Below are positions 7,785-50,935 of a stretch of DNA of 64,000 nt, piece by piece. Each line of letters starts with the position of its first letter. Position 1 is the stretch's first letter. The position numbers and the translations under genes were made by a program. The stretch is from a virus. The notes below the pieces were generated by a model. That model saw nothing but the letters and a program-made list of their open reading frames with translations. It did no database searches and was not told the DNA's origin. The stretch is from IMG/VR virus record IMGVR_UViG_3300036831_000050, positions 18,354 through 82,353 of that record; one strand, 5' to 3'.

Positions 7785-7801
7785 TGGGGCATGATGCAAC
7801 A
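7785..7801. promoter_or_regulatory. 17-bp palindromic operator (TGGGGCA-tga-TGCAACA) upstream of the recombination operon
   Basis: One mismatch to TGTNGCA-N3-TGCNACA; intergenic; overlaps a -10-like CATGAT. Confidence 0.6.
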
Positions 7802-7824
7802 GTCCGAATCGAGAGGAGTACCCG

Positions 7825-8865
7825 ATGCCCCAGCAGCAGTGGCAGCCACCCGCGCCGCCAGACGAACCCGTGCAGGAAGGTGCGCGTTGGCGCTGGCATA
7901 AGCCGCCCAGCGAGGCCGTGGCCACGTGGTTTGGCCAGCAGCACATCGCAGACGAGCTGGACCATGAGCACTACGTCGGCGGCGTGGTCCTCATTCCCCA
8001 GTCGGAGAAGGTGAAGTACACCAAGCCCGACGGCAGCGGCACCATCGAGCGCCAGGAACAGGTCTTCACGCCGTACGTCCAGATCGGGACGCGCATCGCC
8101 TACTTCCACGATCTCGCGGAAGCGCGCAACTTGATTCCTGTCATAGAGCCAGCCGACGTGCCGCGTGCCACCAACCCCCAGTCGCTCTACTTCAACGCCA
8201 ACATGGAGGCGGGCCTGTGGTGGCACGTCGTCGCCGGTCGCAACCAGGGCGACGGCAACCAGCGGTTCCTCTGCGCGACGTGGACCGTGGCGCTCTACAA
8301 GCCCGAGAGCTACGCGCGCAAGCTCAACGGCCACAAAGAGATGCCCGTGCGTCAGGGCCGGGGCACCAAGCAGGTCTGGGGCAGCGCCGACATCAACCAG
8401 ATCGCCAAGGCTCAGACCGGCGCCATCGGCCGCGCGTTGGGCGTGTGCGGCATTCTCGTCGTCGGCACGGGTATCGCCACGGCGGAGGACATGCAGGAGT
8501 ACGTCGGAGCACCGCCCCAGCAGCCCGTGCAGGGCGAGCCGCAGCTTCCCGTACCCACCGAGGTGCCTGGGGCCGAGGCGCCGCCACTGGACCCGGAGGC
8601 CGCGCTGGACCAGCTCAGGGCGCACGCCATGACCCTCCAGGCCCAGATGCAGGAGCGCGGCGTGTGGCCGGAGTTCTCGGCCTGGTACTCCGAACGGGCC
8701 AAAGAGTCCGGGTGGTCCAGCCTCAACGACGTGCCGCACGATGCACTGCGCGGCGTCGTCAGTCGCATGGAGCGCATGGTGGCCGAGGCGCCCGCCAGTG
8801 TGCCTAACGAGCAAACTCAAGTCGCACCACTAGAGGAGGTGGCGAGTGAGCCGGTTCAGCAGTGA
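7825..8865 (+). CDS. Single-strand annealing protein (Rad52/Sak/ERF-like)
   Basis: KAQTGAIGRALG motif characteristic of phage SSAPs; GAGGAG RBS. Confidence 0.6.
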   Translation: MPQQQWQPPAPPDEPVQEGARWRWHKPPSEAVATWFGQQHIADELDHEHYVGGVVLIPQSEKVKYTKPDGSGTIERQEQVFTPYVQIGTRIAYFHDLAEARNLIPVIEPADVPRATNPQSLYFNANMEAGLWWHVVAGRNQGDGNQRFLCATWTVALYKPESYARKLNGHKEMPVRQGRGTKQVWGSADINQIAKAQTGAIGRALGVCGILVVGTGIATAEDMQEYVGAPPQQPVQGEPQLPVPTEVPGAEAPPLDPEAALDQLRAHAMTLQAQMQERGVWPEFSAWYSERAKESGWSSLNDVPHDALRGVVSRMERMVAEAPASVPNEQTQVAPLEEVASEPVQQ

Positions 8866-9427
8866 CTACGACGACGAGTATTTCCCCAACCAGGCCGCGC
8901 TCTGGCAGGCCAACGCCAGACGCGCACTGAAGGGGAAGAAGGGTCGCAAGGCTCTCGCTGAGCTGCGCGACGCACTGCGGGCACTGCCCGAGAAGCGCCT
9001 GATCGCTGGCGCGCTGTGCACCGTGGGCGGCCTGGAGCGACCCGACATCGCGGAGAAGCTGGCCGAGGAGGAGCGCCGTCATGAGGAGAACCCTCAGTGG
9101 GGCAACTGGTATCGCGACGAGGCGACGAGCAAGGTGAAGGAAGAGGGCGAGGGCGTGTGCGCCATCGGCGCATACCTCTGGCACCGCGAAGTGAAGGCCG
9201 GGACCGACCCCGAGGAGGCGTTCGCCAAGCTGCCGACACTGCTCGACATCGACGGTGGTGACTACGAGACCGCGAGGGCGGGCCACGAAGCCGGACTCAC
9301 CTTCACGCTCGCCTGGCAGCTCGCCTGGCGCAACGACGAGGAGTACGACGGCCTGTCACCAGAGGAGCGGTACGAGTCCTTCATGCGCTGGCTCGATGAG
9401 GAGCTGGGCGACGCGGTGGCGGCGTGA
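8846..9427 (+). CDS. Hypothetical phage protein
   Basis: 193 aa; GAGGAGG RBS; coupled. Confidence 0.7.
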   Translation: MSRFSSDYDDEYFPNQAALWQANARRALKGKKGRKALAELRDALRALPEKRLIAGALCTVGGLERPDIAEKLAEEERRHEENPQWGNWYRDEATSKVKEEGEGVCAIGAYLWHREVKAGTDPEEAFAKLPTLLDIDGGDYETARAGHEAGLTFTLAWQLAWRNDEEYDGLSPEERYESFMRWLDEELGDAVAA

Positions 9428-9879
9428 CCCTCCACCCCGACAGCCACACCGAGCTGCCGACCATCGAGCAGACCTACGTCCTGACAATCAAGGGTGCGCC
9501 GAAGTCGATCAACGCTGGCGGCGGCGGCACACGTGCCAACCACTACGCGGCGGCGGCCGAGAAGAAGCACTGGCAGGGTCAGTTCGGCCTAGAGCTGATG
9601 GTCGCCAAGGTCCGACGGAACATGCTGTTCTGCGGTGTGACTGTCACGGTGCGCTTCAAGCATCGTAGCGGCAAGGGGCGCGACGCAGAGAACTACCGCC
9701 AGCCCATCATCAAGCCACTGCTCGACGCTCTTCAGGCTGGCGGCTACCTTGAGAACGACACTGAGGAGTTCGTCAAGGTCCACGATGTCACCCTGGAGGA
9801 GGGCGTGGCCGAGTGGCCGCACGCCGACCCCCGAATCAAGTCAGAGATGATCGTCCAACTGGAGGCTGCCTACCTATGA
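9424..9879 (+). CDS. RusA-like Holliday junction resolvase
   Basis: PKSIN ... RDAENY...IKPLLDAL...END matches the RusA DxDN-K-DAL-DD pattern. Confidence 0.65.
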   Translation: MTLHPDSHTELPTIEQTYVLTIKGAPKSINAGGGGTRANHYAAAAEKKHWQGQFGLELMVAKVRRNMLFCGVTVTVRFKHRSGKGRDAENYRQPIIKPLLDALQAGGYLENDTEEFVKVHDVTLEEGVAEWPHADPRIKSEMIVQLEAAYL

Positions 9880-10255
9880 ACCTAGTCCCCCGCACCTACG
9901 TGTGCATCGCCCAGCTTCAGGTCGTCGCGCCGGACCCAGCGACAGCCCAGGAGGCCATCAAGACCGCCGCCGCCAACGTGGCGCCGACGCTCGCCGCCCA
10001 GACCGTCCCCGTGACGCTGAGCTTCGAGGAGGAGCAGGGCATGCCCGTCCTGGCCGAGACATGAAGGTCCGCGTGAACATCGTCATCGACTACGAGTTCA
10101 CGGACAAAGAGGCGCACGACAGCTACGGCGCCTACGACCCGGCCACCGTGGCAGCAGCGATGCAGGCGCAGGGCGAGCGTGAGCTGATCGGCGCCTTCGA
10201 GCACAAGCAGGGCGTGCAGCACGTCGGCCTGACAGTGCACCCGCTCTATGGCTGA
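9876..10255 (+). CDS. Two small hypothetical proteins (9876-10064, 10061-10255)
   Basis: ATGA-coupled ORFs with phage-like codon usage. Confidence 0.6.
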
Positions 10256-11003
10256 ACTGAAGTTAGCGACTTACTACGACAGCGCGCCGCTGCATGTGCT
10301 GGCGGAGTACATGCGCGACCGCGTGTGGCTGGACGTGATGACGGGGGAGGGCCTGCTCAAGCGCGTCCGCATCGTGCAGATCATCGTCGGCCGTCGGGCC
10401 GAGCAGGTCGTCTTCAAGCAGCAGTGGCTTGAGGGTGGCGGCAACGTCATCGAGCTGTGCAAGCAGCGCATCGTCGTGGACGGCTGTAGCATCTGGCAGG
10501 TCGGCGTCACGCAGTACACGGTGGACGAGATCGCGCCGTGGGGGGCAGCGAAGCTAGAGGTGGTCGATGTGGGCGAGCAGTTCGATGACGTGATGCGTCA
10601 GCTCGTCGTGGAGGCAGTGCTGGAGTGCACCGAGGAAATCTTCAAGGTCAAGCGCGACAAGCTCCTCCAGACGAGTGGGGACTGGCGCGAGTGTCACCAT
10701 CGACACCAGGCCATTCTTGTCATCTACGAGATGACTGACTACAGGCCCGCCGATCTCTGCAAGAACGTCTTTGGCTACGCTTCGCAGGGGCCGTGGTTGA
10801 CGGCCAGGGGCAAGTGTCAGAAGCCGCAGAACTACCACACTGCGTATGGGCAGGAGTATTACCAGCGACGATTGGCGCAGGCCGAGGGCATGGTCAAGGC
10901 CGTGCGACAGATCGGCAAAGCCGCCGACAGGCGACTCAACGCGCGCTACCGGCGCCCCGAGAGCTGTCCGTTCCCCCAGGACTACAAGCCGGTGCTCCGC
11001 TGA
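10248..11003 (+). CDS. Protein with DnaA domain IV-like C-terminal half
   Basis: VLECTEEIFKVKRDKLL...RHQAILVIYEMTDY...LCKNVFG aligns by eye to the DnaA C-terminal DNA-binding domain. Confidence 0.5.
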   Translation: MAELKLATYYDSAPLHVLAEYMRDRVWLDVMTGEGLLKRVRIVQIIVGRRAEQVVFKQQWLEGGGNVIELCKQRIVVDGCSIWQVGVTQYTVDEIAPWGAAKLEVVDVGEQFDDVMRQLVVEAVLECTEEIFKVKRDKLLQTSGDWRECHHRHQAILVIYEMTDYRPADLCKNVFGYASQGPWLTARGKCQKPQNYHTAYGQEYYQRRLAQAEGMVKAVRQIGKAADRRLNARYRRPESCPFPQDYKPVLR

Positions 11004-11490
11004 TGGACAGCGCCCAGACGTACAGAGCTTTCACCCGCGCCCGTGACCTCCGCCTGGCCGACCTGCACTACGACGGGACCTACAAACTGACACGCGGGGG
11101 CAGGGACTTCCTCGACATGGTGGACTTCCTGCGCTCGATAGACGACCGCGCGGGGGCCGCCAGCTCTTCGTCGCCTTTGGCGGCAGGCTCGGAGCAGGCG
11201 GCACCCCAACGCGGCGGCACACCGAGGGGCACACGCCAGGGGGATGATCGCCCGACGGCGCGCGGTGCGCGGAGTAAGCGTACATGAAGCTGCGGAGCCA
11301 CCTACGGCGCGTCTTGAGTCGGCACGTAGTGCTGCACACCAGCGTCGCCCTGGACATGGTGAACCGACCCTACTTCACGGTCTACCGCGACACCGATCTC
11401 ATTGGCGTGGGCCTGTCCTGGGGCAACCGACTGAGTGACCCCGTGTGGTCCATCGACATCGAGCTGTGGAGGAGACCGATCAAGCTATGA
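11003..11490 (+). CDS. Two small hypothetical proteins (11003-11287, 11284-11490)
   Basis: Coupled ORFs in the operon. Confidence 0.5.
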
Positions 11491-12716
11491 AGCTGCCCAA
11501 CAACAGCATCGGCATCTCGGACATCATCAACTACCGAGAGTGTCCGCAGCGCATGGCGTTCAACATGCGCCGTCACATCGAACTGCCGGAGAGACTTCAG
11601 CTCGAACCCGGCGAGCGCGACGAGCCACCTGGGCACACCAACTGGACCAATGCCTACGGGTCGGCCATTCACGACGCGATGCACCTCGTTGACAAGGAAG
11701 GTCTCACCCATGAGCAGGCGATTCACGAAGTGATGCTGCGCTGGGGGACCTACCTTGACCCCGGCGACATCGACCAGTTACGGGACGACTTGAGTCTGTT
11801 CGAGAAGCGCCGTCCGCTCGGCGTCACTCTCGTCGGCTCGGAGATGGAGGCGCGAGTCCCGCTCTTCGCCCATGAGACCGAGGGCCAAATCTACTTCCGG
11901 TTCCGCATCGACGCGCTACACCGCCTGATCGCGAACCCCGGCATCTTCCTGCACCGCGACTACAAGTCGAGCAAGTGGCGCAAGTCACCGGCCGAGGTGC
12001 ACTCAGACCCACAGATGTGGTCGTACAACTGGGGCATACATGAGTGGTTCCCCGAGTGCCAGTTCCTCCAGCAGACCTACGACCAGCTCCGCTTCGGTGA
12101 GGTGCCGACCAGCAAGAACGACGCGCAGCGGGCCACGATCAAGCAGTGGCTCATCGAGAACGTCCGCGTCATCATGGCGGACGAGACCTACAAGCCGAAG
12201 CAGAACGACTTTTGCCGCTACTGCCCGCTCGTTGTCACGTGCCGGGAGACACAGCGCGCCACTGACTACTGGAAGGGGCGCCTGGCACTGACTGCGCCGC
12301 TGACGAAGGAAGGTCGCAAAGTGCGGGTCGCGTTCGAGGCCGAGGGCGAGGAGCTGGCGCGCGTCGTGCGCGAGGAGCTGCCGAAGATGAGCGGCACCCG
12401 CAAGCACATCGAGCATGTTGAAAAGGTGTTGAAAACTATGTTGGCAGAGATGTCGATAGAGCAGCGCCAGGAGCTTGGCTGGCAGCTCAAAGACCGCCGC
12501 AGTAAGACGATTCCGCCCGACGGACTGCGCGAGCTGCACGCGATGATGGGTGACACCTTCTACCAACTTGTCAACATGTCGATGTCAACACTGGAGGAGC
12601 ACACCGGCAAGCCGAAGAAGGGCGAGCCAGTGCCCGCCGAACTTGAGGTGGCCCGTAACTGGCAGACCGAGGAGGTGACCGGGACCAACCTCGTCCCTGC
12701 AAACAGCGAGGACTAG
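11487..12716 (+). CDS. PD-(D/E)XK exonuclease (RecB/Cas4-like)
   Basis: ECP, GSAIH, FRIDAL, DYKS, QMWSY and CRYCP...C Fe-S-type cysteines. Confidence 0.85.
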   Translation: MKLPNNSIGISDIINYRECPQRMAFNMRRHIELPERLQLEPGERDEPPGHTNWTNAYGSAIHDAMHLVDKEGLTHEQAIHEVMLRWGTYLDPGDIDQLRDDLSLFEKRRPLGVTLVGSEMEARVPLFAHETEGQIYFRFRIDALHRLIANPGIFLHRDYKSSKWRKSPAEVHSDPQMWSYNWGIHEWFPECQFLQQTYDQLRFGEVPTSKNDAQRATIKQWLIENVRVIMADETYKPKQNDFCRYCPLVVTCRETQRATDYWKGRLALTAPLTKEGRKVRVAFEAEGEELARVVREELPKMSGTRKHIEHVEKVLKTMLAEMSIEQRQELGWQLKDRRSKTIPPDGLRELHAMMGDTFYQLVNMSMSTLEEHTGKPKKGEPVPAELEVARNWQTEEVTGTNLVPANSED

Positions 12717-12720
12717 CCCC

Positions 12721-12749
12721 TTGAAACCACCCGGCGCTCGCGCTAGGGT
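12721..12749 (+). promoter_or_regulatory. Sigma-A-type promoter of the replication operon
   Basis: TTGAAA-17 bp-TAGGGT in the intergenic region. Confidence 0.5.
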
Positions 12750-12950
12750 GGCCGCAGACAGGGACAAGCCCCCTGCGACCGGAGAGTCTGGCGGACACCG
12801 GAAGCACGGGACCTGTCCTGGGATGATGCGAAACCGAGGCAGATGCAGGCTATTCGTGCCGTACCTTCAGGCCGTCCGTGGCCCGTTCTGCATCGGTGTC
12901 CGAACCAGTGTACCGAAGGCCACAACAGTGGTCAAGAGGAGGGAGAGAGT

Positions 12951-13880
12951 GTGAGCTGGGAAGCGTTAGGGCGCGTGTGGGAGAGGGAGATCACCCCCGC
13001 CGCCCGCAAACTTGTCGCCGTGGCCATCGCAGACGCGGCGAGCGAGGAGTGTGTGTGTTGGCCAAGCCACAAGAGTCTCGCAACGAAGTGCTCACTCAGC
13101 GTTGACAGTGTGCGCGGGCACCTCCGGGCCTTGGAAGATGAGCAGGTCATCGAGAAAGAGTCGCGCGTCCGAGAGAACGGGTCGCAGACTTCCAACACCT
13201 ATGTCATCTTGCGGGCGCCGGACGATTCACCCCCCGGAGCCGGTTCACAGGGGGGTGTGGACGGGTCCACAGGGGGGGGTGTGAACGGGTCCACCCCCCA
13301 GAACCACCATGAAGAACCACCAGAGAACCCCACAGACGGTGCGGAGGGGGTGGGCGACGGGCGGCTGTTCGACTCCGACCCCGTGGCCGAGGTGTTCGAG
13401 CACTACAAGGTCACCGTCCCTGGCAAGGCCGACTCCCGACTGACCCAGCCGACGCGGAAGCTCATCAAGCGCGCCCTGGACGAGCGTCCTATCGACCGAC
13501 TCAAGTTGGCCATCAACGGCCTCGCCGTCAGCCAGCACCACATCGACGGCGGCTGGCTCGGCATTCAGTACGCCATCGGCAAGGTCAAGCAGAGCGAGAC
13601 CCCCGGCGACCGCATCGACATGATGGCCGCCAAAGCGCCTGCTCAGTCCAACAGTTCAGACGGTGGGGTCACAGTTGACGAGCTGCTGCGCACTGTTCCG
13701 TCCGACCGCCACTGGATCATTCGGGACACGATGAGTCTGGTCATCGCCGCCATCAAGCGCGGCGAGCGCGCCGAGCGCGAGGAGGAGATGTTGCGTCGTT
13801 CCCCAGGAGTCGAGCCGATCATCGTGACCGCCAGGGTGGACCAGCCGCCCGAGTTCAAGGGGTGGAGGCGGGTGTCATGA
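12951..13880 (+). CDS. Replication initiator (N-terminal HTH, lambda O-like organisation)
   Basis: CWPSHKSLATKCSLS...LRALE...R..NGSQTSNTY winged HTH; GAGGAGGGAG RBS; internal iterons; upstream of DnaB. Confidence 0.8.
   Translation: MSWEALGRVWEREITPAARKLVAVAIADAASEECVCWPSHKSLATKCSLSVDSVRGHLRALEDEQVIEKESRVRENGSQTSNTYVILRAPDDSPPGAGSQGGVDGSTGGGVNGSTPQNHHEEPPENPTDGAEGVGDGRLFDSDPVAEVFEHYKVTVPGKADSRLTQPTRKLIKRALDERPIDRLKLAINGLAVSQHHIDGGWLGIQYAIGKVKQSETPGDRIDMMAAKAPAQSNSSDGGVTVDELLRTVPSDRHWIIRDTMSLVIAAIKRGERAEREEEMLRRSPGVEPIIVTARVDQPPEFKGWRRVS
13226..13335 (+). repeat. Iteron-like direct repeats, probable replication origin
   Basis: CACAG(G)nTGTGRACGGGTCCAC x2 (13246-13293) plus GAACC(A/C)C x3 inside the initiator gene. 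Confidence 0.6.
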
Positions 13881-14239
13881 GTCATGGCAGCGACCCGCTC
13901 AGCACGGGCTTCGAGAACCGGAAGAATGCCTACTGGTGCCCGGAGTGTCATGGCTACGTCGTGACCATCGACTTGGACGAGGGTGTCACACCGATGTTCC
14001 TGGCCTGCCGCGTCCTGGGTGAACCGAAGGACCCGGCCAACACGTGCACCGGCCGGATGCACTCGATGATGTACCCCGAGGAGCCGTGGCCAGCCGAGGA
14101 CGGCTACGGCAACCCGATTCCCACCGTGCCGACCTGGGAGTGGTACATGCCCGACGCCGCCGAGCTGCGGAAGATGGGCCGCGAGGGCCGAGAGCACGCA
14201 CGCAAGGGCGGCCTGTCACTGAGGCAGCGCAATGCGTGA
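13877..14239 (+). CDS. Zn-binding hypothetical protein
   Basis: CPEC...C...C motif; ATGA overlap. Confidence 0.65.
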   Translation: MSHGSDPLSTGFENRKNAYWCPECHGYVVTIDLDEGVTPMFLACRVLGEPKDPANTCTGRMHSMMYPEEPWPAEDGYGNPIPTVPTWEWYMPDAAELRKMGREGREHARKGGLSLRQRNA

Positions 14240-14744
14240 CGTGAACTTCGGCTACTGGGTCGAGCGCAGCTTGGCCAACATGGGCGTCGGCCCGCTGGAC
14301 GGCCCTGTCATCTTCGGCAGTGCTGTCATGAAGCTGCACGGTCTCAAGGACGAGATCGGGGACGTGGACCTGTTCGTAACACCGAGCGCCTATCACCGGC
14401 TGCGCGGCCAGGGGTGGGAGGAGCTGCGGCCCGTACCGGAGGACCCGCCGTTCCTAGAGGCGCAGTCGATCATCGAGCGCACCCTGTCAGCCGCCAAGGT
14501 CATGGACTTCCACGCCTTCCACGCATGGACCAGCCGCGACGCCTGGCTGGACCTGCCCGAGGCGGTGGCGACGGCCGAGCGCGTCTGCGGCCTGATGTGC
14601 GTGCGACTGGAGTTGGTCGCTAAGTGGAAGCAGGAGGCGTTGACGTGGTGTGTCAAGCACGGCGTCGAGATTCCCGGCTCACCGTGGGAGAAGCACATCG
14701 CAGACCTGAACACGCTGGTCGGGGCGGGGGTGACACCAGCATGA
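14232..14744 (+). CDS. Minimal nucleotidyltransferase-like protein
   Basis: IFGSAVM..HGL...GDVDLF is a Pol-beta superfamily GS...DxD motif. Confidence 0.55.
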   Translation: MRDVNFGYWVERSLANMGVGPLDGPVIFGSAVMKLHGLKDEIGDVDLFVTPSAYHRLRGQGWEELRPVPEDPPFLEAQSIIERTLSAAKVMDFHAFHAWTSRDAWLDLPEAVATAERVCGLMCVRLELVAKWKQEALTWCVKHGVEIPGSPWEKHIADLNTLVGAGVTPA

Positions 14745-16132
14745 GCGAGATCATGGCCATGCCGATCAACCGCGAGGCCGAGTGGTCTGTCATCGCTCGC
14801 ATGCTCAACCAGCCTGACATCATCGGTGAGATCATCGGCGTGCCCATCGAGCAGCAGGACTTCTCCGACGGCGACACGCGGCTTCTCTACGCAACTTGTG
14901 TTGAGCGGTACTACAGCGGTCAGCCCGTTGACCCGCTCATCGTGGGCGAGGTGGTGCGCGAAGACCTGGCGGCTGCGTGGGGCATGACCGACAGTCGTGG
15001 GGTGTCCGGTCAGCTCGTCCAGCGTGTCCGGCAGGCCGAGGTGGGCGGCAACGTGCTGGACCACGCGGCGCTCGTCAAGCGGCTCTCGGTGGCACGCCAG
15101 CTAGACATGGTGTGCTTCCAGGCGATCACCCAGCTCCGCGACGGCCAACTGACACCCGAGGAGGTGGCCGACCAGCTCTCCACCGAGGCCCTACAGATCA
15201 CGGCAGGCTCGCTGCGGCGCTCCGAGCTACTGGGGTGGATGGACGTGGGCCGTCAGTACGCCATTCAGCTCGAACGGATCATGAAGGCCAGGCAGCAGGG
15301 CATCGAGATCGGCGTCTACACCGGCCACTCGTTCATCGACAAGTGGACGCAGGGCATCGGTCCCGGCGAGCTGTGCTTCCTGGCGGGAGACCCCGGCGTG
15401 GGCAAGACGGCGGTTGCGTGGTCGGCGGCGATGGGTTTCGCCCGACGGCAGATGCAGCGTAAGCCCGAGCAGCGCGTTGGCACGCTGATGCTGTCCATGG
15501 AGATGAACCTGTTTGGGTCCACGATGCGCATGGTCCAGTCACTTACAGGGATCGACGGCGGCAAGCTGCGGACCGGCGACCTGACACGCGACGAGTTCCA
15601 CCACATCTTGCGCGAGTGGAAGAACCGCGAGCAGCTACCCATGCACTTCAACTTCGCCAGCAACTTCAGGCTGTCACAGATGCGGGCGCTCATCACCGAG
15701 GCCATTCGCAAGGCGAACATCGGCTTCGTTGTCATCGACCACTTCCGCATGATCGACACCGACCGGCGCTACACCAACCCCAATCAGGAGGACGAGGCCA
15801 AGGTCCGCTTCCTGAAGGAATCGTTGGCCAAGGACTTGAACATCGCCGTGCTCTGCCTGGCGCACACTGTGAAGGTGGGGCGTGGTCAGGGCGGCGAGTC
15901 ACCCAAACCAAGACTGTCAGACCTTCGAGGCTCAGGTCAGGTGTCAGCGCACGCCGACTTCGTGGGCTTCATGTGGAACCCCAGCAAGTACATGTCAGAA
16001 GAGGCACGGTACGAGATGGGGCTACTCCGTGACAACGAGATGGAGCTGTCATGGGAGAAGAGCCGCTTCGGACCAGGCGGTAGTGAGAAGTTCCTGTTCG
16101 AGGCAGACAAAATGCGGGTGCTACCCGCCTAA
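14741..16132 (+). CDS. dnaB: Replicative DNA helicase
   Basis: EAEWSVI N-terminus, GDPGVGKT Walker A, SMEM, VIDH, PRLSDLRGSGQV..HAD. Confidence 0.95.
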   Translation: MSEIMAMPINREAEWSVIARMLNQPDIIGEIIGVPIEQQDFSDGDTRLLYATCVERYYSGQPVDPLIVGEVVREDLAAAWGMTDSRGVSGQLVQRVRQAEVGGNVLDHAALVKRLSVARQLDMVCFQAITQLRDGQLTPEEVADQLSTEALQITAGSLRRSELLGWMDVGRQYAIQLERIMKARQQGIEIGVYTGHSFIDKWTQGIGPGELCFLAGDPGVGKTAVAWSAAMGFARRQMQRKPEQRVGTLMLSMEMNLFGSTMRMVQSLTGIDGGKLRTGDLTRDEFHHILREWKNREQLPMHFNFASNFRLSQMRALITEAIRKANIGFVVIDHFRMIDTDRRYTNPNQEDEAKVRFLKESLAKDLNIAVLCLAHTVKVGRGQGGESPKPRLSDLRGSGQVSAHADFVGFMWNPSKYMSEEARYEMGLLRDNEMELSWEKSRFGPGGSEKFLFEADKMRVLPA

Positions 16133-16145
16133 CGAGAGGAGCAGC

Positions 16146-17054: not shown

Positions 17055-17056
17055 GC

Positions 17057-37754: not shown

Positions 37755-37758
37755 CCAG

Positions 37759-41126: not shown

Positions 41127-41154
41127 GCACCCCGCAAAGAGCGACAATCTGTGG

Positions 41155-41171: not shown

Positions 41172-41196
41172 GTTCTGATACCGTCCCCGCCTCAGG

Positions 41197-41261: not shown

Positions 41262-41262
41262 T

Positions 41263-42672: not shown

Positions 42673-43636
42673 GGGCGTTCGAGGCCACCGACACCATGAC
42701 AGTACGTCGGGTCAAGGCGATCAATCGCCAGACTGGCCGCGAGCACGGCATCGCTCTGCTCGGTGACTTCGATGGTGACATCGAAGCGTTCGAGGAGATT
42801 CGTCGCCACTACCCGAAGCGGCTCTACAAGATCGTGGACCGCGAGACCGGCGAAGAGATCGAGCTGGACAGTTGAGCTTCCGCGACCGCATGGAAGAGGA
42901 GGACCGCAACTGGCAGTTCGAGGACGAGCGCCGAGCTGAGCGCGAGCGCGAGCATGCGCCTGCGCCCCGGTTCGGCATTCCGGCCATCTCCGAGCTGGAG
43001 GGCTGTAACCCGACCATCGGGCCGGACCCCGTGCTCCTACTGGTCGTGCAGGTTCCACCAGGGACCGAAGGGGCTGTAGTGAGGGCGGTGGCGAGGCACG
43101 CCAAGTCTCACAGTGTCACACTGATGCTGTGGACGAGGCGGCCTCGCCGCCGCCAACGTCGTGCAATGAAACTTCTGTGGGGCCGTAAGCTCGGCAAGCG
43201 GCTCACAGGCTAACGAGAGGAAGACATGGAAGCAGCAACAGTGACGCCGGACCAGACGGAGACCAAGGCCGAAGAGGCCGAGGAGTCAACGCCCGAGCAG
43301 CGGGCGGAGCAGGAGGCGATCATCGGAGACCCCGGCATCGAGACCGAGGCGCCGATGGCCGAGCGCACCACGCCGCCCGCGAAGTCCTGGGCGGTCTACC
43401 AGTACGACTCAACGGCAGTTCCGCCAGCGCCGCAGTGTCACATCTTCGGCTACGACACGGCGGGCAACCCGCTGGACGAGGCCGGAGCCAACGACCTGCT
43501 GGCACGGCTCTCGCCCGGACACTCCGGCACACTCATGGCGTTGCCCAACGAGGACGCGCCCGACCTGCCACCCGCGCCTGCCGCTGCGGCCCCGCTGGAA
43601 GAGCCGCACGCCGAGCAGAACCACGACAACGCATAG
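42669..43636 (+). CDS. Three hypothetical proteins (42669-42875, 42872-43213, 43226-43636 acidic)
   Basis: Coupled ORFs; GAGAGGA RBS. Confidence 0.55.
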
Positions 43637-43705
43637 GTGTCGCTCATGGAGGGTAGACCTGCTACCGTCGGTCCCCTCCAGTTCGTTGGCATGGACGCCA
43701 ACATC

Positions 43706-43746
43706 GCCCCGCCGCTCAGCGCCCCCGAGCGGCGGGGCATCTTTTT
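43706..43746 (+). terminator. Rho-independent terminator
   Basis: GCCCCGCCGCTC/GAGCGGCGGGGC 12-bp stem followed by CTTTTT. Confidence 0.8.
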
Positions 43747-43766
43747 GCCCAAATTGCGGGGTCACC

Positions 43767-43783
43767 TGTTGCAGGCTGCCACA
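43767..43783. promoter_or_regulatory. 17-bp operator
   Basis: TGTTGCA-ggc-TGCCACA, exact consensus, intergenic after the terminator. Confidence 0.7.
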
Positions 43784-43856
43784 GCACGTGGTATGAGTCC
43801 CACCAAGTGTCAGAGGACTGACGCTAACACCGGGACCAGATCGGAGGGGCACTGCA

Positions 43857-44439
43857 ATGCTCTCCACAGTCATGCAGGAAGTCAGGGACAGACTCCACGG
43901 AGGCGAGCCGTTCGAGAGGGTCGAAGCCTTCATCGAATACGCGCCCGGTCTGACAGACGAGGAGCGTGCCGCGCTCTGGCTGCTCGCCTGGTCAGACGGC
44001 GATCTCCAGGCGATGTCATTCGACCTGGGGCGCTCACACGACTTGGTGGTCTGTGACTGACATCGTTGTCACCTGGCCGAAGGACCGGCGACTCGCCAGC
44101 TACATCGCGGGCTGCATGAACGCCAAGTCCGACGGCCAGGTCATCAACTTCAGGGTGCGCAACCCACCCAATCGTGGGCGGCTGTTCGAGGAGGGGGAGC
44201 AGCCGCCCCGTCTGTACCGGGTGCACGACGGGTTCGTCCGTGGCTACACGCCGATTACCGCTGTCACATTCAAGGACGACGTGATAAGAGTCGCGGACGA
44301 CCCGTTGCCTGGCTACTGGCCACCGGGCTGGTACATCGTGTGCGACCCGACGTGGACCGACGCGCAAAAACCGTTGCAGGCCATGAAGGGCTTTCGCGGT
44401 TTCCGCTGGTTCCAGCGGCCGATGCGCGACGGCGGCTAG
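43857..44439 (+). CDS. Two hypothetical proteins (43857-44060, 44053-44439)
   Basis: GGAGG RBS; coupled. Confidence 0.55.
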
Positions 44440-44537
44440 AAGCTAGAATCTAGGCATGAACTTCAATCGAGGCGTAGAGCGGGTCCGGCGTGTCATGAGG
44501 GAACGCGAGGAGGCGGCCCGACGGTCGGTCGGCCTCC

Positions 44538-44548
44538 GGCGTAAATTA
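44538..44548 (+). promoter_or_regulatory. Late-type promoter motif GGCGTAAATTA
   Basis: One of five GGCGTANATTA copies. Confidence 0.6.
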
Positions 44549-44579
44549 CGAACCAGAGTCCAACCGTCAGGAGGAAGCA

Positions 44580-44906
44580 ATGACGAATATCGCCAAGTGG
44601 GAGGAAGGGACCGAGATCACACTGGACAGCGAGGTTGAGGCCGCCTCCGCAGGCTGGGTCCTCAACTACGCGAGCGTCCTGCGCATCGGTAGCGCGGTCG
44701 CGGTCCACATCGAGGCGACGAGCGATGGGACCGGCACCGGCCACATCTGCACGCTCCCTCCCCAGTTCGCCCCCGGCGCCCTGGTGACCACCTCGGACGG
44801 TCTGTTCACCATCGCGCAGGACGGCACCGTGACGCGGCTCGCGGGCGGCGCGGCCGGAGTCGGCCGCATCAACGTCAACTACGCCGCTGGCGAGGCATCG
44901 CCCTGA
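44580..44906 (+). CDS. Small beta-rich protein resembling a tail-fibre head domain
   Basis: LRIGSAVAVHI...ICTLPPQFAP...TIAQDGTV pattern; GGAGGAAG RBS. Confidence 0.5.
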   Translation: MTNIAKWEEGTEITLDSEVEAASAGWVLNYASVLRIGSAVAVHIEATSDGTGTGHICTLPPQFAPGALVTTSDGLFTIAQDGTVTRLAGGAAGVGRINVNYAAGEASP

Positions 44907-44935
44907 TCTGCACCTGACGATTCGGACTCGTCATG

Positions 44936-44973
44936 GGGGCGGCGCCTTTGGTAGGGGCGCCGCCCCTCTTTTT
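44936..44973 (+). terminator. Rho-independent terminator
   Basis: GGGGCGGCGCC/GGCGCCGCCCC stem followed by TTTTT. Confidence 0.8.
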
Positions 44974-44994
44974 GTCCAGATAGCGGGATAGCTC

Positions 44995-45023
44995 TTGCGA
45001 GCCTTCGGGAACACGTGTACTCT
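44995..45023 (+). promoter_or_regulatory. Sigma-A-type promoter
   Basis: TTGCGA-17 bp-TACTCT. Confidence 0.55.
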
Positions 45024-45049
45024 CCCGACGGGATGATGAGGACGGCCGC

Positions 45050-45660
45050 ATGAGCGAGCAGCCAGCGGTGCACCGGCACCCCGAGGCGCCGAAGGTGCAC
45101 ACCGAGCACAAGAAGGCCAACGAGGCCATCGAGAGCTTGCGTGCGGTGGCGGCCACCCTTCAGCAGGTCGGCAACGAGCTGACCCACACGACGACCGACA
45201 AGAAGAAGCTGGAGGAAGAGGTGACCAAGCTCACCGAGCAGGTCGCGGAGATGGAGGAGCAGGTCGCTCTAGGCGGTGAGGCGCTGGAGGCACTGGAGGA
45301 CTTCAAGCGTGACCTATGTGACAGGGACGAATTGCTGCAACGAACGGTGGGGAGGCCATGACATTCGATGACGAGCGCCGGACTCTGGAGCTGGCGAGAG
45401 AGTGGAAGGAAGGGCGCATCGTCGCGGTGCACCCGAGCATCGGGCGAATGCTCAACTGCGCACTGACAGCCAACGGCGAGGACCCGGTGCCATTCGGGCT
45501 GGCCACCAACAGCCAGGCGCCGTCGTTGATCGACCTGATTCGTGGTGAGTACGAGTGTGCACCACGTGACACATCGGGCGGGAAAAAGGCAGCGGCACGT
45601 CGATTCGCGCACCAACTGAGCGCGAGCGTGCATGGGAGGGCACATGTCGGCGGCGGCTGA
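45050..45660 (+). CDS. Two hypothetical proteins (45050-45361 coiled coil, 45358-45660)
   Basis: Coupled ORFs. Confidence 0.55.
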
Positions 45661-45874
45661 AACGGCCGTGAACGCGGCGCTGAAGACCGCTCGCGACTTC
45701 CGGGGCGCGCTGGAAGTGGCCACCAGGCATGAGCGCACGGCCACCGTCGCCTTCATGGACGAGGCGCGAGCGAGTGGCTGGGACTGGGAGAGCGTTGGTC
45801 GCGAGCTTGGCATCTCCGGCAACGCGGCCCGCCGCTACTACGCACGCAACCGCAGGAAGGTGCGGAGTGTCTGA
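45644..45874 (+). CDS. Small HTH protein
   Basis: ARASGWDWESVGRELGISGNAARRYY. Confidence 0.7.
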   Translation: MSAAAETAVNAALKTARDFRGALEVATRHERTATVAFMDEARASGWDWESVGRELGISGNAARRYYARNRRKVRSV

Positions 45875-47511
45875 GACCGACCAGAGACAGGCTCACCTCA
45901 TGGAGACCACCGAGGCGCGCATGCGCGACACCCACCGGATGCTGACCGAGGCGGACATCAAGGTCCGCGAGGCCAGGCTGCGGCACCAAACGGCCGACAT
46001 TCTCTTCGACAGCGCCCACGACCTGAACGAGTCGGCACAGGCAAACTTGAATCGAGCCGTAAAGATCAGGCGCCGCATGACGAAGCTGGACCTGTTGGTC
46101 ATTCTGCTCATCATCTTGCTGGCGACGCACGTCATCTAGGGAGGACTCATGGACCACATCGACAGCAAGGTCACCACAGCACTACGCGCCATCGAGGCCG
46201 GTGGGCAGCAGCTCGTCATGCAGGCACGCCAGCGCGTCGCCAAGATTCTCGACGCGCTGGACGAGGGTGACTTTGTTGAAGCGTTCCAGGCCGCAAAGCT
46301 CGTCCAGCAGTCGCTTGGCCCGCTGACCAACGCGCAGAACTACATCGCCGTAGCGGGCAACTCACGCCTGCTCGCAGCCAGGGAGCTGAAGACGGGCATG
46401 GTCCTGACCGACGTGGGCGCCGTCACCGATGTCACGATCAACGAGTGCGTGGCCGAGGTGTGCGAAGGGCATGTCAAAATCTCCATCGGCGCGCATGAGG
46501 TGGAGTACGACGGCGGGACCGAGCTGTACGTCCGTGTAGACGACAACGGCGAGTTCGTCTACGAGGAGGCATCTGCGTGAGCTGGCATGAGGACGGCCAC
46601 AGTGCCGCCGCCTTCATTGACGACGAGGTGATGCGCGTCAAGCTCCAGTGCCCAGGTGACGACTTCTGCGAGGCCAAGCAGCGGTGTCACGTCTGTGAGG
46701 GTGCGGGCGAGGTGACCAACGGCCCGTTCGAGACCGAGCCGACCTACCGCCGCGAGACCTGTCAGCTCTGCGAGGGGTCCGGCGTGGAGCCGGGGACGTG
46801 TCATCTCATCGACTGGGCCGAGAACATGTGCCCGATGGAGATGCACCACGGCCGCACGGACCTGTTCGGTGTCACATTCCCTGCCGCGATTCGATGGCGC
46901 TACGGAGGTGATGAAGATGGCCCGGAGTGGCGTTTCGCGATTGACTACCCCGACGAGGGACGAGAAGCCGCCGCCTAGACAGCACGGCATTCTGCACTGC
47001 GAGGCGCGGCTGCGCTCGCTGCCGAACTTCGATCAGCACCGCTGCCAGCCACCCGAGTTCATCTGCGCGTGCGGGCGCCGCTGGGTTCACGTCTGCAACG
47101 AGGCCGAAGGCTGCTCCTACGTCGAAGCGGGCGCCATACGGTTCGTCGTCCTGAATGACGATTCCGTGCTGTGCGAGGACTGCTACGAAATGCTCAAGAC
47201 CGATGTGGAGATAGACCCAGGCAAGGTGCCATTCGGAACGACCAACCAGGGAACGTGTGGGTACTGTGGAGCCTGTTCGGCATAGTGTCACGTGGCGCAT
47301 CGCCACGCAGGACGAGCTAGAGCGCACCGGCTGCGAGGGCCAGGCGAACCTCACCGACGGCGCGGCGGCCATTCTGGTGGACGGCGAGCTGCGGGGCATC
47401 ACCAACGAGTACGGCACGTGCATCTGGTCGGCCTACGACGGCCCCGAGGACGTGAAGGGGTCGCAAACCGAGGCCATCGAGCGGCTGAGCGAGGCCGCAG
47501 GCGAGCTATGA
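45867..47511 (+). CDS. Cluster of small hypothetical proteins (45867-46139 membrane-anchored, 46149-46580, 46577-46978 Zn-finger, and ORFs ending at 47285 and 47511)
   Basis: Contiguous ORFs; starts of the last two are uncertain. Confidence 0.5.
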
Positions 47512-47536
47512 CCCAACGACAGTTGACTTGCAAGAT

Positions 47537-47565
47537 GTGACACCCGCCACCAAGGCGGGTACACT
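47537..47565 (+). promoter_or_regulatory. Sigma-A-type promoter
   Basis: GTGACA-17 bp-TACACT. Confidence 0.6.
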
Positions 47566-47593
47566 GCCAGTAACCTACCCATAGGAGGCAAAG

Positions 47594-48190
47594 ATGGAAG
47601 CAGGATCGCAGACCCCTGGCGACCAGGGCACACCGGAGGCCGAGGGCCAGACCCCAGAGCAGCAGGCTGCTGCCGCTGGAGCGGCCCCCGAAGGCCAGGA
47701 CCAGCACGGCCAGGCGCTCGCGTCCGGCGTCGCGGGGTCCGAGGCCGACCCGACAGCGGGTGCGCCCGCCGAGGGCGAGGGCGGAGCCGAGGGCGCGGGT
47801 GAGGGTGCCGCTGGCGGTCCGACGGACGCGCCGGTTCCCACCGCCTCCGATGAGGAGCGGCTGAGCGATCTCTCCGAGGAGGAGCGCAACCCCGCTGCCG
47901 ACCAGTCCCCGGCCGCCACGGCGGCACAGGACGCGGTGGTCGGAGACCCTGGCCTGCGCGACGAGCAGCAGCCGGTTGGCTCGGTGCCAAACCCGGACAC
48001 GCCCGTCCGCACGTCGGCCCCGCCGCCGTCGGCCCAGTCCGGCGTTCCGCTTCCCGAGGACCGCGCCGCTGGCGTGCAGCCGGGAGTCAGCGGTCCCGCC
48101 GTCGCTGGGGGCGCGGGTGCGGACGAGGAGGAGACCCCGGACCACGATGGTTCCGAGGGCCAGTCCTCCACGTCGCCCATGGGCGGCTAG
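47594..48190 (+). CDS. Acidic, intrinsically disordered protein
   Basis: AGGAGG RBS; G/A/P/E/D/Q-rich with no aromatic residues. Confidence 0.65.
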   Translation: MEAGSQTPGDQGTPEAEGQTPEQQAAAAGAAPEGQDQHGQALASGVAGSEADPTAGAPAEGEGGAEGAGEGAAGGPTDAPVPTASDEERLSDLSEEERNPAADQSPAATAAQDAVVGDPGLRDEQQPVGSVPNPDTPVRTSAPPPSAQSGVPLPEDRAAGVQPGVSGPAVAGGAGADEEETPDHDGSEGQSSTSPMGG

Positions 48191-48214
48191 TCCTAGCCCG
48201 CAATCTGGAGCATT

Positions 48215-48248
48215 CCAAGGGCCGCCTCAGGGCGGCCCTTGGCCTTTC
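48215..48248 (+). terminator. Terminator hairpin
   Basis: CCAAGGGCCGCC-tcag-GGCGGCCCTTGG, 12-bp stem. Confidence 0.7.
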
Positions 48249-48259
48249 CGGGGGAGGGG

Positions 48260-48276
48260 TGTGGTAGCCTGCAACA
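48260..48276. promoter_or_regulatory. 17-bp operator over an extended -10 (TGGTAGCCT) of a leaderless gene
   Basis: TGTGGTA-gcc-TGCAACA, immediately before ATG 48278. Confidence 0.7.
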
Positions 48277-48277
48277 C

Positions 48278-48842
48278 ATGGCTGAGCGAGAGCTGAGAGA
48301 GCGAACCGTCGATGCCTGGCACCGTGAATTGCACGACGGCCGGGTGGAAATCATGTGCAAGAGCGCCACGCATCGCATTCGTGTGACAGCGCCCGAGGAC
48401 CAGGCGTGGGAGGCGGTCGAGCTGTTCGAGAAGTGGACCGGCCTGACAATCGCGTCCGAGCGCAGGCCCCGCCGTCGGGCACCGCAGCTCCCCGGCCAGC
48501 TCGCTATGACCGAACTCGAATCTGACAGTAACGAGGGAAGTGGCGATTCTGCCCCAGTCGGGGAACAAACGCCACTTGACCCAGACAGGGAGGCTCTACG
48601 TGGGACTATCTAGCTGTCCAGGCTGCGGCGCCAACGTGAACGTGGCCCATGACATCGCCACCGACGAGGTGGTCGTGCTGGAAGTGCACACCGACGCCTC
48701 ATCTGACGCGGCGCGCTACCGCATCGTGTCACACGGGCCGCCGAAGCTCCTCGTTGAGCGCGTGCCTGAAAACGCCCCCGGCGACTTCTACCCCGACCAC
48801 AAGTTCGACTGCCCCGACTTCAATGCCGGTCATACCGTCTGA
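48278..48842 (+). CDS. Two hypothetical proteins (48278-48613; Zn-ribbon ORF ending 48842)
   Basis: Leaderless start; CPGC...H..DC. Confidence 0.55.
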
Positions 48843-49044
48843 GCGCGCACAGGAGGTGCGAGACCAGCTCCTCGGCGCCGCAGAGCGCCGCAGGCAGCTC
48901 AGCTCGTCCAGCGAGGCCCTGAGCGACGAGATCAGGCAGCTCGTTCGCGACGCGCGGGCTGTCAGCATTCCCGTGGCCGAGGTGGCACGCCTGCTGGAGA
49001 TCGACCGCTCCACTCTGTACCGCGTCTACAGCGATGCCGCCTGA
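48823..49044 (+). CDS. Small HTH protein
   Basis: IPVAEVARLLEIDRSTLYRVY. Confidence 0.75.
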   Translation: MPVIPSERAQEVRDQLLGAAERRRQLSSSSEALSDEIRQLVRDARAVSIPVAEVARLLEIDRSTLYRVYSDAA

Positions 49045-49541
49045 CACTTGCGTTCACGCCGATGTGGACTTCCTCCGGTCCGCCCAGTTGGCCGACGATG
49101 AGATCGCGGTGTGTGTCTACATGGCGGCGGACGGCCGTTGCCCGATCTGCAAGCCGGAGCATGAGGACGCCTACACCGAGGCCGTGCGGTTCCGCAGGGA
49201 GGGTCACAACCCCACTCCGAGCGATGCCGCGTAAGCCGACCAGGCTGGCCGACGACATCGAGCGGTCGCTGCGCGCTCGCGAGAACGGCGACCCGCGCCG
49301 GTTCGTCGGCTTCGACTACATGCGGGTCTTCGCGCAGGCGGGCATACCCATGCGCAAGGTGCCCCAGAAGCATTGGCTCTTGGACGGTGAGCCGACCAAG
49401 GCCGTGGTCAACTGCCCCTGCGAGCACGGGGTGAGCATCGACGCCGGTCAGTACCCGGCCAAGTGCCCCGGCAAGGACTGCCCCAGATCGTTCTTCTTCG
49501 ACGGAACTGCCGTCTGGGCGTTGCTCTCACCGACTTCCTGA
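49034..49541 (+). CDS. Two Cys-rich hypothetical proteins (49034-49234, 49224-49541)
   Basis: Overlapping ORFs with CxxC motifs. Confidence 0.55.
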
Positions 49542-49546
49542 GCGGA

Positions 49547-49557
49547 GGCGTATATTA
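49547..49557 (+). promoter_or_regulatory. Late-type promoter motif GGCGTATATTA
   Basis: 6 nt before leaderless GTG 49564. Confidence 0.65.
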
Positions 49558-49563
49558 GGGGGT

Positions 49564-50058
49564 GTGCATCTTCCGCACTGGCCGGACTCAGACAAGGCAC
49601 CCCGACCGTTCGTGGCGTTCGCTGCCGTGGATCGCGTTCACGCCCAAAGGCTCTACCGCGCCCAGAACGTGATCTGGGTCTGGCTGGGCATAGTGGCCAT
49701 GCTGGCCGCCGTTGCGTACTTCGCGCGGCCGTACTTCGGCCCGGTGATCGTTAGCCGCTACCCGGCTCTCGATGTCGTGCGTGTCGTCGCGTTCGCCGTT
49801 GGCGGAGCTGGTATTTCCGGTGGCGTCTGGAACGTCCGGCGAGTGCTGGAGGTATGGGGTCACTGCCTGTTCGCCTGCGGGGCGACGATAACCGCCGCCG
49901 TGGAGCTGTCACTTCACCTTGACGCCTTCACGATCATCACCACGTTCGGGCTGGCCATAGCCAGTGCTCTGCGGGTCTGGTACATCGTCGCCTGGATCGG
50001 CGCCGGTAGGGTCACGGCAGCAGTGGTCGAAGACGCACATGCACTTCCTCGCGACTAG
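49564..50058 (+). CDS. Four-TM membrane protein (holin-like)
   Basis: Four hydrophobic segments; heads the lysis region. Confidence 0.55.
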   Translation: MHLPHWPDSDKAPRPFVAFAAVDRVHAQRLYRAQNVIWVWLGIVAMLAAVAYFARPYFGPVIVSRYPALDVVRVVAFAVGGAGISGGVWNVRRVLEVWGHCLFACGATITAAVELSLHLDAFTIITTFGLAIASALRVWYIVAWIGAGRVTAAVVEDAHALPRD

Positions 50059-50362
50059 CACCTTCGGGTTCGTGCAGGCGGTCTCGGCCGCTGCCGTCAT
50101 CGCTGCCATAGTCGGAGGCATCGCGGCCGTGCGGAAGATGGGACCGGAGAAAGACTCCCTCTTCATCACCTCGGCGCAGGGAGCGGCTGTCATCATGGAC
50201 AACCTCATCTCCACGCTTCGCGAAGAAGTTGATCGCGAGCGCCAGGAGGTTGCACGACTGACAGCCGAGAATGAGCGCCTTGAACGGGAGAACAAGGGAC
50301 TGAGGGAGGAGACCGAGGGGCTGCGCAAGCGCGGCGGCACCAGACGAAATGACAGAGAGTGA
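50039..50362 (+). CDS. TM plus coiled-coil protein (lysis accessory)
   Basis: N-terminal TM and C-terminal coiled coil, as in actinophage lysis cassettes. Confidence 0.6.
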   Translation: MHFLATSTFGFVQAVSAAAVIAAIVGGIAAVRKMGPEKDSLFITSAQGAAVIMDNLISTLREEVDRERQEVARLTAENERLERENKGLREETEGLRKRGGTRRNDRE

Positions 50363-50935
50363 TGCGCCTCCTTCGTAGGCCCCGCATATTCCGCGAGCCA
50401 ACCGTGGTGGTCATCGACGTTTCTGAGCCTGACACGCTTGATCGCATCGCCCTCATGAACAGCACGCTTATCAGGCTCGTCGCTGGCACGGGCCTGGTCG
50501 AGGTTCGCAGCGCCGACTACAGGCAGGGCCACATGGAAGTGGTGGTGGAGCACAAGCCGAGAGTGGTCACAGAGGACAGGCGTGTCGCTGTTCACGCGGC
50601 GCATACCCTCTGACTAGAGTTCCGCCGTAACCTGTAGTACGCTGCATCACATCATGCAGCGCCCGTCGATTTACGAGCTGGTCCGCGCGGTGAGAACCGT
50701 AGCCGCAACGGTCGGCGCCACCACGGCCACCTACTGCTTCGAGGGACGCATCGCTGTGTCCCTGGAGGCGGGCTGGTCGCTGGTGCTTTCCTCGGACGAT
50801 GCGGGGAGATTCAGGGTCGAGGCTTGCCATTCTGGCCGAGTACGAGCTACCATGTGGTGTCTCGCGGACGACGACGACCGGCTGGCGGAGCTGGCGTCCT
50901 CGGCAGAGCGGGAAGCGGCGGCTCTGGTCGCCTGA
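50359..50935 (+). CDS. Two hypothetical proteins (50359-50613, 50654-50935)
   Basis: The second is leaderless behind the operator-like site 50633-50649 (TGTAGTA-cgc-TGCATCA). Confidence 0.5.

Follow-up and report, generated by a model that had tools for sequence, protein, structure and literature searches.

A dispersed 17-bp palindrome as the probable operator of a phage-encoded repressor in an uncultured soil phage

The window analysed here, 64,000 nucleotides of a phage genome (bases 18354–82353 of IMG/VR record IMGVR_UViG_3300036831_000050), carries the palindromic word TGTNGCA-N3-TGCNACA at sites scattered over 43 kb and spaced 2–15 kb apart. The sites lie in non-coding DNA, are two-fold symmetric, overlap −10-like boxes and are conserved at orthologous promoters of related phages. 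The best explanation, to which we assign a probability of roughly 0.6, is that the 17-bp word is the operator of a phage-encoded dimeric helix–turn–helix (HTH) repressor acting at at least eight non-structural transcription units. A preliminary description of this DNA had proposed that one dimeric regulator acts through such a palindrome at promoters on both arms, and the statistics, symmetry and placement of the copies support a site of this type. The source record (82,353 bp, estimated 94% complete, 65% G+C) was assembled from a soil metagenome. No literature on this motif was found in searches that did not include the name of the phage lineage.

Genes were called on the whole record from G+C content at third codon positions (GC3), which left 10.7% of bases non-coding. 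Four exact copies of the word occur in the window (28147, 32316, 41155 and 43767), whereas 100 dinucleotide shuffles averaged 0.01 and never reached four, and three further copies have one mismatch (7785, 22851 and 48260). With up to two mismatches, there were 11 matches; the 100 shuffles averaged 3.21 and none of them exceeded 8. Over the whole record, copies with zero, one, two and three mismatches were non-coding in 4/4, 3/3, 3/4 and 6/21 cases, respectively; the coding two-mismatch copy, at 5924, was absent from the earlier list. The exact and one-mismatch copies claimed previously thus exist as described, and the motif is not equally frequent in coding DNA, since all seven are non-coding. 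No site was found in the first 18 kb of the record, which holds structural genes. The relaxed core TGTNG-N7-CNACA occurs nine times compared with 0.9 times in 200 shuffles (largest 4), and six of these nine are the non-coding sites.

A 25-bp weight matrix was trained on the seven best sites, so that its scores on those seven (19.8–29.8 bits) are circular; the untrained site at 50633 scored 20.1 bits, and the maxima of 20 shuffled genomes were 8.1–17.5 bits. Eight sites, all of them non-coding, were set apart from shuffled sequence by the matrix. The scan that had been suggested for this genome and its relatives thus made the sites stand out, and they recur in relatives. The predicted operators, to which no strand is assigned, are the following.

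7785–7801: predicted operator with one mismatch, 23 nt before the ATG of gene 7825–8865; 19.8 bits; no TAnnnT box seen.
22851–22867: predicted operator with one mismatch, in the promoter of candidate regulator A; it reads TGTAGTACAGTGCAACA on the minus strand, with TACAGT at positions 6–11.
28147–28163: predicted operator, exact, between the DUF6744 and RuvB-like genes; minus strand TGCTACACT (TACACT); 29.8 bits.
32316–32332: predicted operator, exact, in the promoter of the MoxR-like/vWA operon; TGCTACACT (TACACT, minus strand) over the downstream half.
32335–32351: probable auxiliary site, separated by 2 bp from the main MoxR operator on its upstream side; 15.1 bits, within the shuffle range.
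41155–41171: predicted operator, exact, after the Rpf-like gene; 26.6 bits; TGATACCGT (TACCGT) 6 nt downstream.
43767–43783: predicted operator, exact, just after an intrinsic terminator with a T-run (43721–43738).
48260–48276: predicted operator with one mismatch; TAGCCT at positions 6–11; the ATG of 48278–48613 follows 1 nt after the site.
50633–50649: predicted operator with two mismatches; TACGCT at positions 6–11; the ATG of 50654–50935 follows 4 nt after the site.

Among the weaker copies named earlier, 50633 is upheld by its score and 32335 as a probable auxiliary site, its counterpart being a second copy that adjoins the MoxR operator in metagenome contig L107 (17.8 bits), whereas 21926 and 21951 are indistinguishable from chance as operators. 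Gene 7825–8865, behind the site at 7785, is the first gene of the rightward recombination/replication operon. It had been labelled a single-strand annealing protein (SSAP) gene. The operon stands as a target, with an operator ahead of it and RusA-like, exonuclease, replication initiator and DnaB-like genes further along, whereas the SSAP label is unverified: the product has no Pfam match and no PDB match, and it hits a single PHROG of unknown function.

The symmetry of the word is that of a site for a protein dimer. Two-fold symmetry holds at all 12 specified positions, whereas the two N positions of the exact sites face each other as A/C, A/C, C/C and T/C. Because these variable half-site letters are non-complementary, what is selected appears to be the six specified positions per half and not pairing, suggesting recognition on duplex DNA instead of a hairpin. 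No compensatory changes keeping the N positions paired were seen across relatives, and the site at 41155 folds no better than its shuffles (z −0.9).

For the promoter analysis, each site was oriented towards its downstream gene. A TAnnnT box occupies operator positions 6–11 in three sites (22851, 48260 and 50633), lies over the downstream half in two (28147 and 32316) and stands 6 nt downstream in one (41155). The boxes said earlier to overlap most copies (TACACT, TACAGT, TAGCCT and TACGCT) are present as written, although no clear −10-like box was seen at 7785 or 43767. Two leaderless genes had also been proposed, and 48278 and 50654 indeed start 1–4 nt after their sites; gene 48278–48613 is confirmed by orthologs in four relatives, and its operon includes candidate regulator B. 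In a hand tally over all genomes, the half with GTA in place of GCA is the promoter-upstream half in 12 of 12 assignable sites, two more being unassignable. This asymmetry supports the promoter reading: an embedded TAnnnT box demands it, and it puts a −10 box at the operator centre. Terminator-like hairpins precede 43767 and, as judged by eye, 41155 and 48260, consistent with separate transcription units.

Five IMG/VR relatives were analysed whole (G001–G005; MoxR-like proteins 44–54% identical to that of this phage; the G001 record is only 73% complete), together with the further relatives G006 and G007, the fragments G008–G010 and short metagenome contigs such as L107. Copies with at most one mismatch numbered 3, 5, 0, 1 and 6 in G001–G005, respectively, and a reversed-pattern control gave 0 in all five. 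G006, which is more distant (capsid 58% identical to that of this phage by tblastn), has 3 such copies, G007 has 1 and G008–G010 have 0. In relatives of about 45–55% protein identity, the sites recur at the same promoters.

RuvB promoter: site kept in G001, G002 and G005 (3 of the 5 full relatives) and in L107.
MoxR promoter: site kept in G001 and, among 13 short metagenome contigs, in four, namely L108, L109, L119 and L107, the last of which has two copies side by side.
Recombination/replication operon (counterparts of 7785): site kept in G005 (23.9 bits) and G001 (17.7 bits), with lower-scoring copies in G002 and G003.
Promoter of HTH gene A: 22.6 bits in G002, 22.4 in G004, 18.0 in G003 and 12.7 in G001; none in G005.
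Leaderless 48278 operon: site kept, with the geometry of 48260 repeated, in G002 and G005; variant site in G004.

At the MoxR promoter, sub-threshold variants were found in G002, L113 and L114, and nothing comparable in the other 7 contigs. Counterparts of 50633 stand before the orthologs of its gene and are weaker (G003, 10.8 bits; G005, 9.5 bits). When the region upstream of the MoxR-like gene was aligned with that of L107, whose MoxR-like protein is 86% identical, only the island of operator and −10 box and the ribosome site were conserved. The outer word TGTNG-N7-CNACA survives across phages whose MoxR identity ranges over 33–86% and whose capsid identity ranges over 55–82%. G004 has a variant, TGTRGA-N5-TCYACA, with three exact copies compared with a shuffle mean of 0.3 at up to one mismatch; these lie at record positions 41730, 41867 and 83483 (L104, L106), ahead of the recombination operon and the leaderless B operon. 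It came to light when orthologous promoters were inspected, since crude counts of 7-mers in the non-coding parts of G003 and G004 had pointed to no separate motif convincingly.

Three HTH genes of the phage were considered as the source of the regulator.

21973–22812, minus strand: candidate A, 279 residues, with an N-terminal GerE/LuxR-like HTH (about residues 5–45); directly upstream of the integrase gene.
48823–49044, plus strand: candidate B, 73 residues, with a long helix at the N-terminus and an HTH of Fis/resolvase type at the C-terminus; its gene ends the 48260 operon.
45632–45874, plus strand: candidate C, 80 residues, with a Myb-like HTH (22.7 bits, cut-off 27); the weakest candidate.

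Candidate A has orthologs in all five full relatives, of which tblastn alone reached four, missing G004, and its gene adjoins the integrase gene in this phage, G002, G003 and G004. The Pfam models GerE and Sigma70_r4_2 match 6 of 6 A orthologs at E values up to 0.05; the best E value in the family with GerE is 7.8e-5, and A itself scores 15.6 bits with a cut-off of 23.5. The family profile aligned in PDB with GerE (1fse; E 5.4e-6) and NarL (1je8; E 0.026). Beyond the HTH, A consists of basic Arg/Lys/Ser/Thr repeats, a predicted long helix in a conserved segment and an acidic tail. Its promoter carries the motif in five of the six phages, and 22851 is the site that A had been said to carry on its own promoter. 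It had also been said that no classical cI gene lies beside the recombinase, and in agreement Pfam finds no Peptidase_S24 domain in A or in any of the 50 window proteins scanned.

No match to A was found by tblastn against 50,697 phage records or by a single-protein scan of viral contigs. A word-indexed search with its first 50 residues returned only A itself, and an alignment of three A N-termini used as query recovered only G001 and G002. The scores of an Atlas look-up were low throughout (0.79 for features, TM no higher than 0.25) and were taken as no evidence. Three of the six A orthologs end in Ala-Ala (TAA, PAA and AAAA; L103:8329-8760, L089:12424-12996 and L095:3532-4317), and the three long forms, that of the window included, have an acidic F-x-Q-[DE]-G-[DE]-[DE] near the C-terminus. 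These C-terminal features might mark the protein for degradation or bind a partner.

Candidate B has orthologs in G002–G005. HTH_28 matches five of five members of its family and HTH_8 four of five (best E 7.2e-5), B itself scoring 16.5 bits against HTH_8 (cut-off 22). Candidate C has orthologs only in G002, G003 and G004 and is absent from the motif-rich G005, which has six copies; the proposal that the HTH gene at 45644 might be an alternative regulator is thereby disfavoured. The recognition helices of both A and B are most divergent in G004, the relative with the variant word. This covariation is a hint in favour of a phage-encoded binder over a fixed host factor, and it does not separate A from B.

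The sites lie in the three non-structural blocks of the phage, the rest of the record being structural genes. Functions were taken from family searches (Pfam and PHROG).

7825–19358, plus strand: rightward recombination/replication block, with RusA-like resolvase, exonuclease, replication initiator, DnaB-like helicase and Sigma70_r2 protein.
35347–19672, minus strand: leftward block, with MoxR-like ATPase, vWA, DUF6744, RuvB-like and HTH proteins and tyrosine integrase.
36702–52866, plus strand: rightward block of small genes.
20882–21904, minus strand: tyrosine recombinase (integrase) of the leftward block; Pfam Phage_integrase 55.1 bits, cut-off 27.1.

We infer binding, repression and the identity of the binder from these sequence features, and the following scenario is proposed. 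A regulator dimer would sit on the core promoter, covering the −10 box and the start point, and block RNA polymerase. The rightward recombination/replication operon, the leftward MoxR/vWA operon, the RuvB-like gene and the regulator's own gene would be repressed in this way, as would four rightward early units, two of them leaderless, so that all three non-structural blocks would be covered and the early and middle genes would form a repressor regulon. The structural genes may be kept silent indirectly, since a sigma-like gene (18699–19358) ends the operator-controlled rightward operon. The most likely binder would be A, encoded beside the integrase gene and negatively autoregulated, although we rate its identification at somewhat less than even odds. 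B may bind the same sites, as Cro shares operators with cI. It is the integrase alone that suggests a temperate phage.

Several observations weigh against this scenario. Every Pfam HTH match of A and B is below its curated cut-off, and the weight matrix is trained on sites that it scores. A consensus sigma-70 scan called a promoter at no motif site and no −35 element matched, so that the assignment of promoters depends on the −10-like boxes. The region upstream of the RuvB-like gene is conserved throughout in the alignment with L107 and is hence uninformative. In G003 the A helix is conserved, yet all sites are weak and half-degenerate. The A promoter of G004 is canonical despite its divergent A recognition helix, and G005 has six sites, none of which is on the A promoter; the comparative data therefore do not single out A. 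Finally, immunity operators usually diverge between related temperate phages, whereas here the outer TGTNG...CNACA persists where protein identity has fallen to about 50%, as would also be expected if a conserved host factor bound it.

The first alternative is that B alone binds the word, as a lytic-cycle regulator of early genes and not a lysogeny repressor, with A having some other role. The preliminary description had ranked A first and named B as an alternative. A retains the argument of the site on its own promoter, and B fits the comparative data equally well. The motif lies on the B operon in this phage, G002 and G005, B is conserved in G002–G005, and its long helix followed by a C-terminal HTH matches HTH_8, of the Fis family, and HTH_28 in the proportions given above. 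Moreover, in G004, where the B helix is divergent, the variant word stands on the B operon while the A promoter is canonical. However, nothing above −0.6 bits stands before the B operon in G003, the incomplete record of G001 yielded no B ortholog, the Pfam matches are below their cut-offs and the best PDB match (E 0.016) is to a 25-residue peptide. We consider B as sole binder unlikely, if deserving of attention.

Somewhat less probable again is that a host transcription factor binds the word, the phage family having wired its early promoters to a host signal. Conservation of the outer word over the ranges of MoxR and capsid identity given above is unusual for immunity operators, and actinobacterial CRP/FNR-type factors such as Cmr use palindromes that end in TGT...ACA. 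The Cmr site is TGTCA-N6-TGACA (PMC4705688). However, the geometry here is 7-3-7 over 17 bp, not the 5-6-5 over 16 bp of CRP/FNR sites (TGTGA-N6-TCACA-like), the inner positions differ between phage lineages in step with the phage HTH proteins, as in G004, and two HTH genes of the phage have the motif on their promoters, in the manner of autoregulated phage regulators. Besides A, B alone and a host factor, other phage proteins take up the remainder of the probability for the binder.

More doubtful still is an extended form of the repressor model in which A and B, which are unrelated, share the genome-wide operators. They would then constitute a distributed lysis–lysogeny switch with no central control region, in which the histone-like basic tail and the long helix of A would bridge the scattered operators and compact the silent prophage, B being supplied by a leaderless early operon. 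The word would be nearly fixed across the family of ~80-kb soil phages, its specificity drifting only at half-site positions 6–7.

It is very improbable that the word is a promoter element for a phage sigma-like protein (18699–19358 or 36702–37754) and not an operator. Protein 18699–19358 does match Sigma70_r2 (26.9 bits, cut-off 24) and is present in G001–G006, and all motif sites lie at likely promoters. Nevertheless, no −35/−10 pair consists, as this word does, of halves that mirror each other at all six specified positions across a gap of only 3 bp, and the TAnnnT boxes suit the host housekeeping type. Protein 36702–37754 has neither a Pfam nor a PHROG match. An apparent absence of the sigma gene 18699–19358 from the motif-poor G003 and G004 was rejected, as tblastn finds it in all relatives, so that its presence does not correlate with that of the motif.

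Two strong palindromes bear on the relation of the sites to hairpins. At 28147, eight more complementary bases on each side extend the operator to a palindrome at 28139–28171 (RNA fold −30.5 kcal/mol, z −6.6). The second lies outside the site family.

21929–21964, minus strand: inverted repeat of two perfectly matching 14-bp arms around an 8-nt spacer, lying in the gap from the gene A stop to the integrase start.

Its RNA fold is −33.3 kcal/mol (z −6.7), and its arms are the weak copies 21926 (12.8 bits) and 21951 (3.0 bits), both within shuffle noise; each arm holds an operator heptamer, in everted order. These two copies were rejected as operators, and the tyrosine recombinase, which had been counted among the targets, consequently drops out of the regulon. 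The repeat is most likely a terminator-type hairpin, and G002 has a T-tailed hairpin, seen by eye, in the gap between gene A and the integrase gene. A recombinase core site is a weaker alternative, the geometry resembling lox/FRT as much as a terminator. That the palindromes at large act as RNA or DNA hairpins, for example terminators or processing sites, is scarcely credible: the two that fold strongly do lie between co-directional genes, but the core N positions of the exact sites are mismatched, 41155 folds no better than shuffles, the sites at leaderless genes lie upstream of the transcript and 21929–21964 differs in geometry.

Some neighbouring features complete the description of the units. 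The gene before 41155 (40530–41084) encodes a secreted-looking protein with a transglycosylase (Rpf-type) domain (25.7 bits, cut-off 27; 27.4 bits with its frame neighbours), which points to a possible actinobacterial host. Downstream of 41155 come a tRNA-like element (41197–41261) with a GGTTCGATTCC T-loop and then gene 41263–41649, for which no ortholog was found in the relatives. The element is called by neither ARAGORN nor Rfam, both of which were empty across the window, and a search of 185,579 species genomes with its 22-nt T-arm/acceptor word gave a single exact match, in a metagenome-assembled genome (MAG) of Treponematales; the element seems not to be an attP copy of a known host tRNA. 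The first gene after 43767 is probably 43857–44060 (67 residues, GC3 0.78, GGAGG ribosome site), which overlaps a longer open reading frame (43966–44439) whose true start is probably later.

As to the phage itself, megablast found no close cultured relative, and the large terminase is 29% identical to that of a mangrove-soil phage. The MoxR-like protein has 157 homologues at E values up to 1e-30, many of them on contigs of 79–86 kb and one on a contig labelled as a Solirubrobacteraceae MAG; a single-protein scan of viral contigs with the vWA protein gave no match. Alignment of the capsid revealed no prophage in the 185,579 species genomes. No RNA runs match window positions 22600–32500, and two soil-metagenome DNA runs do, one of them perhaps the run from which this DNA came.

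The present analysis offers a regulatory map, the first for this abundant family of uncultured soil phages with high-GC genomes of ~80 kb, indicating which units are probably co-repressed, where promoters and leaderless starts may lie, and two small genes as candidate regulators. The operator with its embedded −10 box forms a compact promoter-plus-operator module that could serve as a repressible part in actinobacteria.

Lambda operators are 17 bp long, with two 7-bp half-sites and a 3-bp centre, and overlap core promoters; they form two triplets clustered between the divergent cI and cro genes. This phage shares with lambda the 7-3-7 geometry, the overlap with core promoters and possibly the use of the same sites by a long and a short regulator. 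In contrast to the lambda clusters, the sites here are single or double and distributed over 43 kb, with A and B 26 kb apart, and the lambda repressor has a RecA-cleavable S24 peptidase domain, of which Pfam found none in A. GerE/LuxR-type domains bind inverted heptamers as dimers (7-2-7 for NarL), and the HTH of A aligns with those of GerE and NarL by its family profile. Unlike the GerE fold, A seems by eye to be without the fourth helix and has a basic, histone-like linker and a separate long helix.

In the Streptomyces phage phiC31 (AJ006589), CTACTCACGTGAGTAG-type palindromes are scattered in at least 14 copies, which belong to families D1, D2 and D4. Since these repeats are of even length, the 17-mer palindrome scan of phiC31 missed them. 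We take them to be sites of the phiC31 repressor c. Repressor c and the conserved inverted repeats were reportedly the subject of work by Ingham and colleagues in 1994, Wilson and colleagues in 1995 and Smith and colleagues in 1999. As in this phage, one palindrome is scattered over intergenic gaps, the region of the repressor included. However, the phiC31 palindrome is a different word of even length with no central base, compared with 17 bp here, the word TGTNGCA-N3-TGCNACA is absent from phiC31, and its 683-residue repressor is not similar to A (BLASTP best E 5.8). In phiC31 the sites go with a distinct promoter word that is specific to the phage, whereas here the operator itself contains the −10 box. 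In the early region of phiC31, nine copies of GGGTTGCCGACTCCCTTAC-like repeats (family D3) were also observed, presumably the known early promoters.

The repressor of mycobacteriophage L5 and other cluster A phages has more than 20 operator or stoperator sites across the genome, at promoters and in short intergenic gaps, and these are asymmetric 13-mers that are bound by a monomer and function only in one orientation (PMC9283540; the system is also treated in PMC6550527). L5 resembles this phage in that its sites are dispersed and the site family is common to a large group of related phages, and differs in that its 13-mers are asymmetric and oriented, whereas the 17-mers here are symmetric, only the position-6 variant being oriented, because of the embedded −10 box. 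The claim that the present switch is unlike that of lambda accordingly stands as regards the dispersed sites and the lack of an S24 peptidase, but the arrangement is not new in kind. P1 likewise has one repressor with many scattered operators. The principle is already established for phiC31, L5 and P1, and what this phage adds is a new example with new candidate regulator folds, not a new mechanism.

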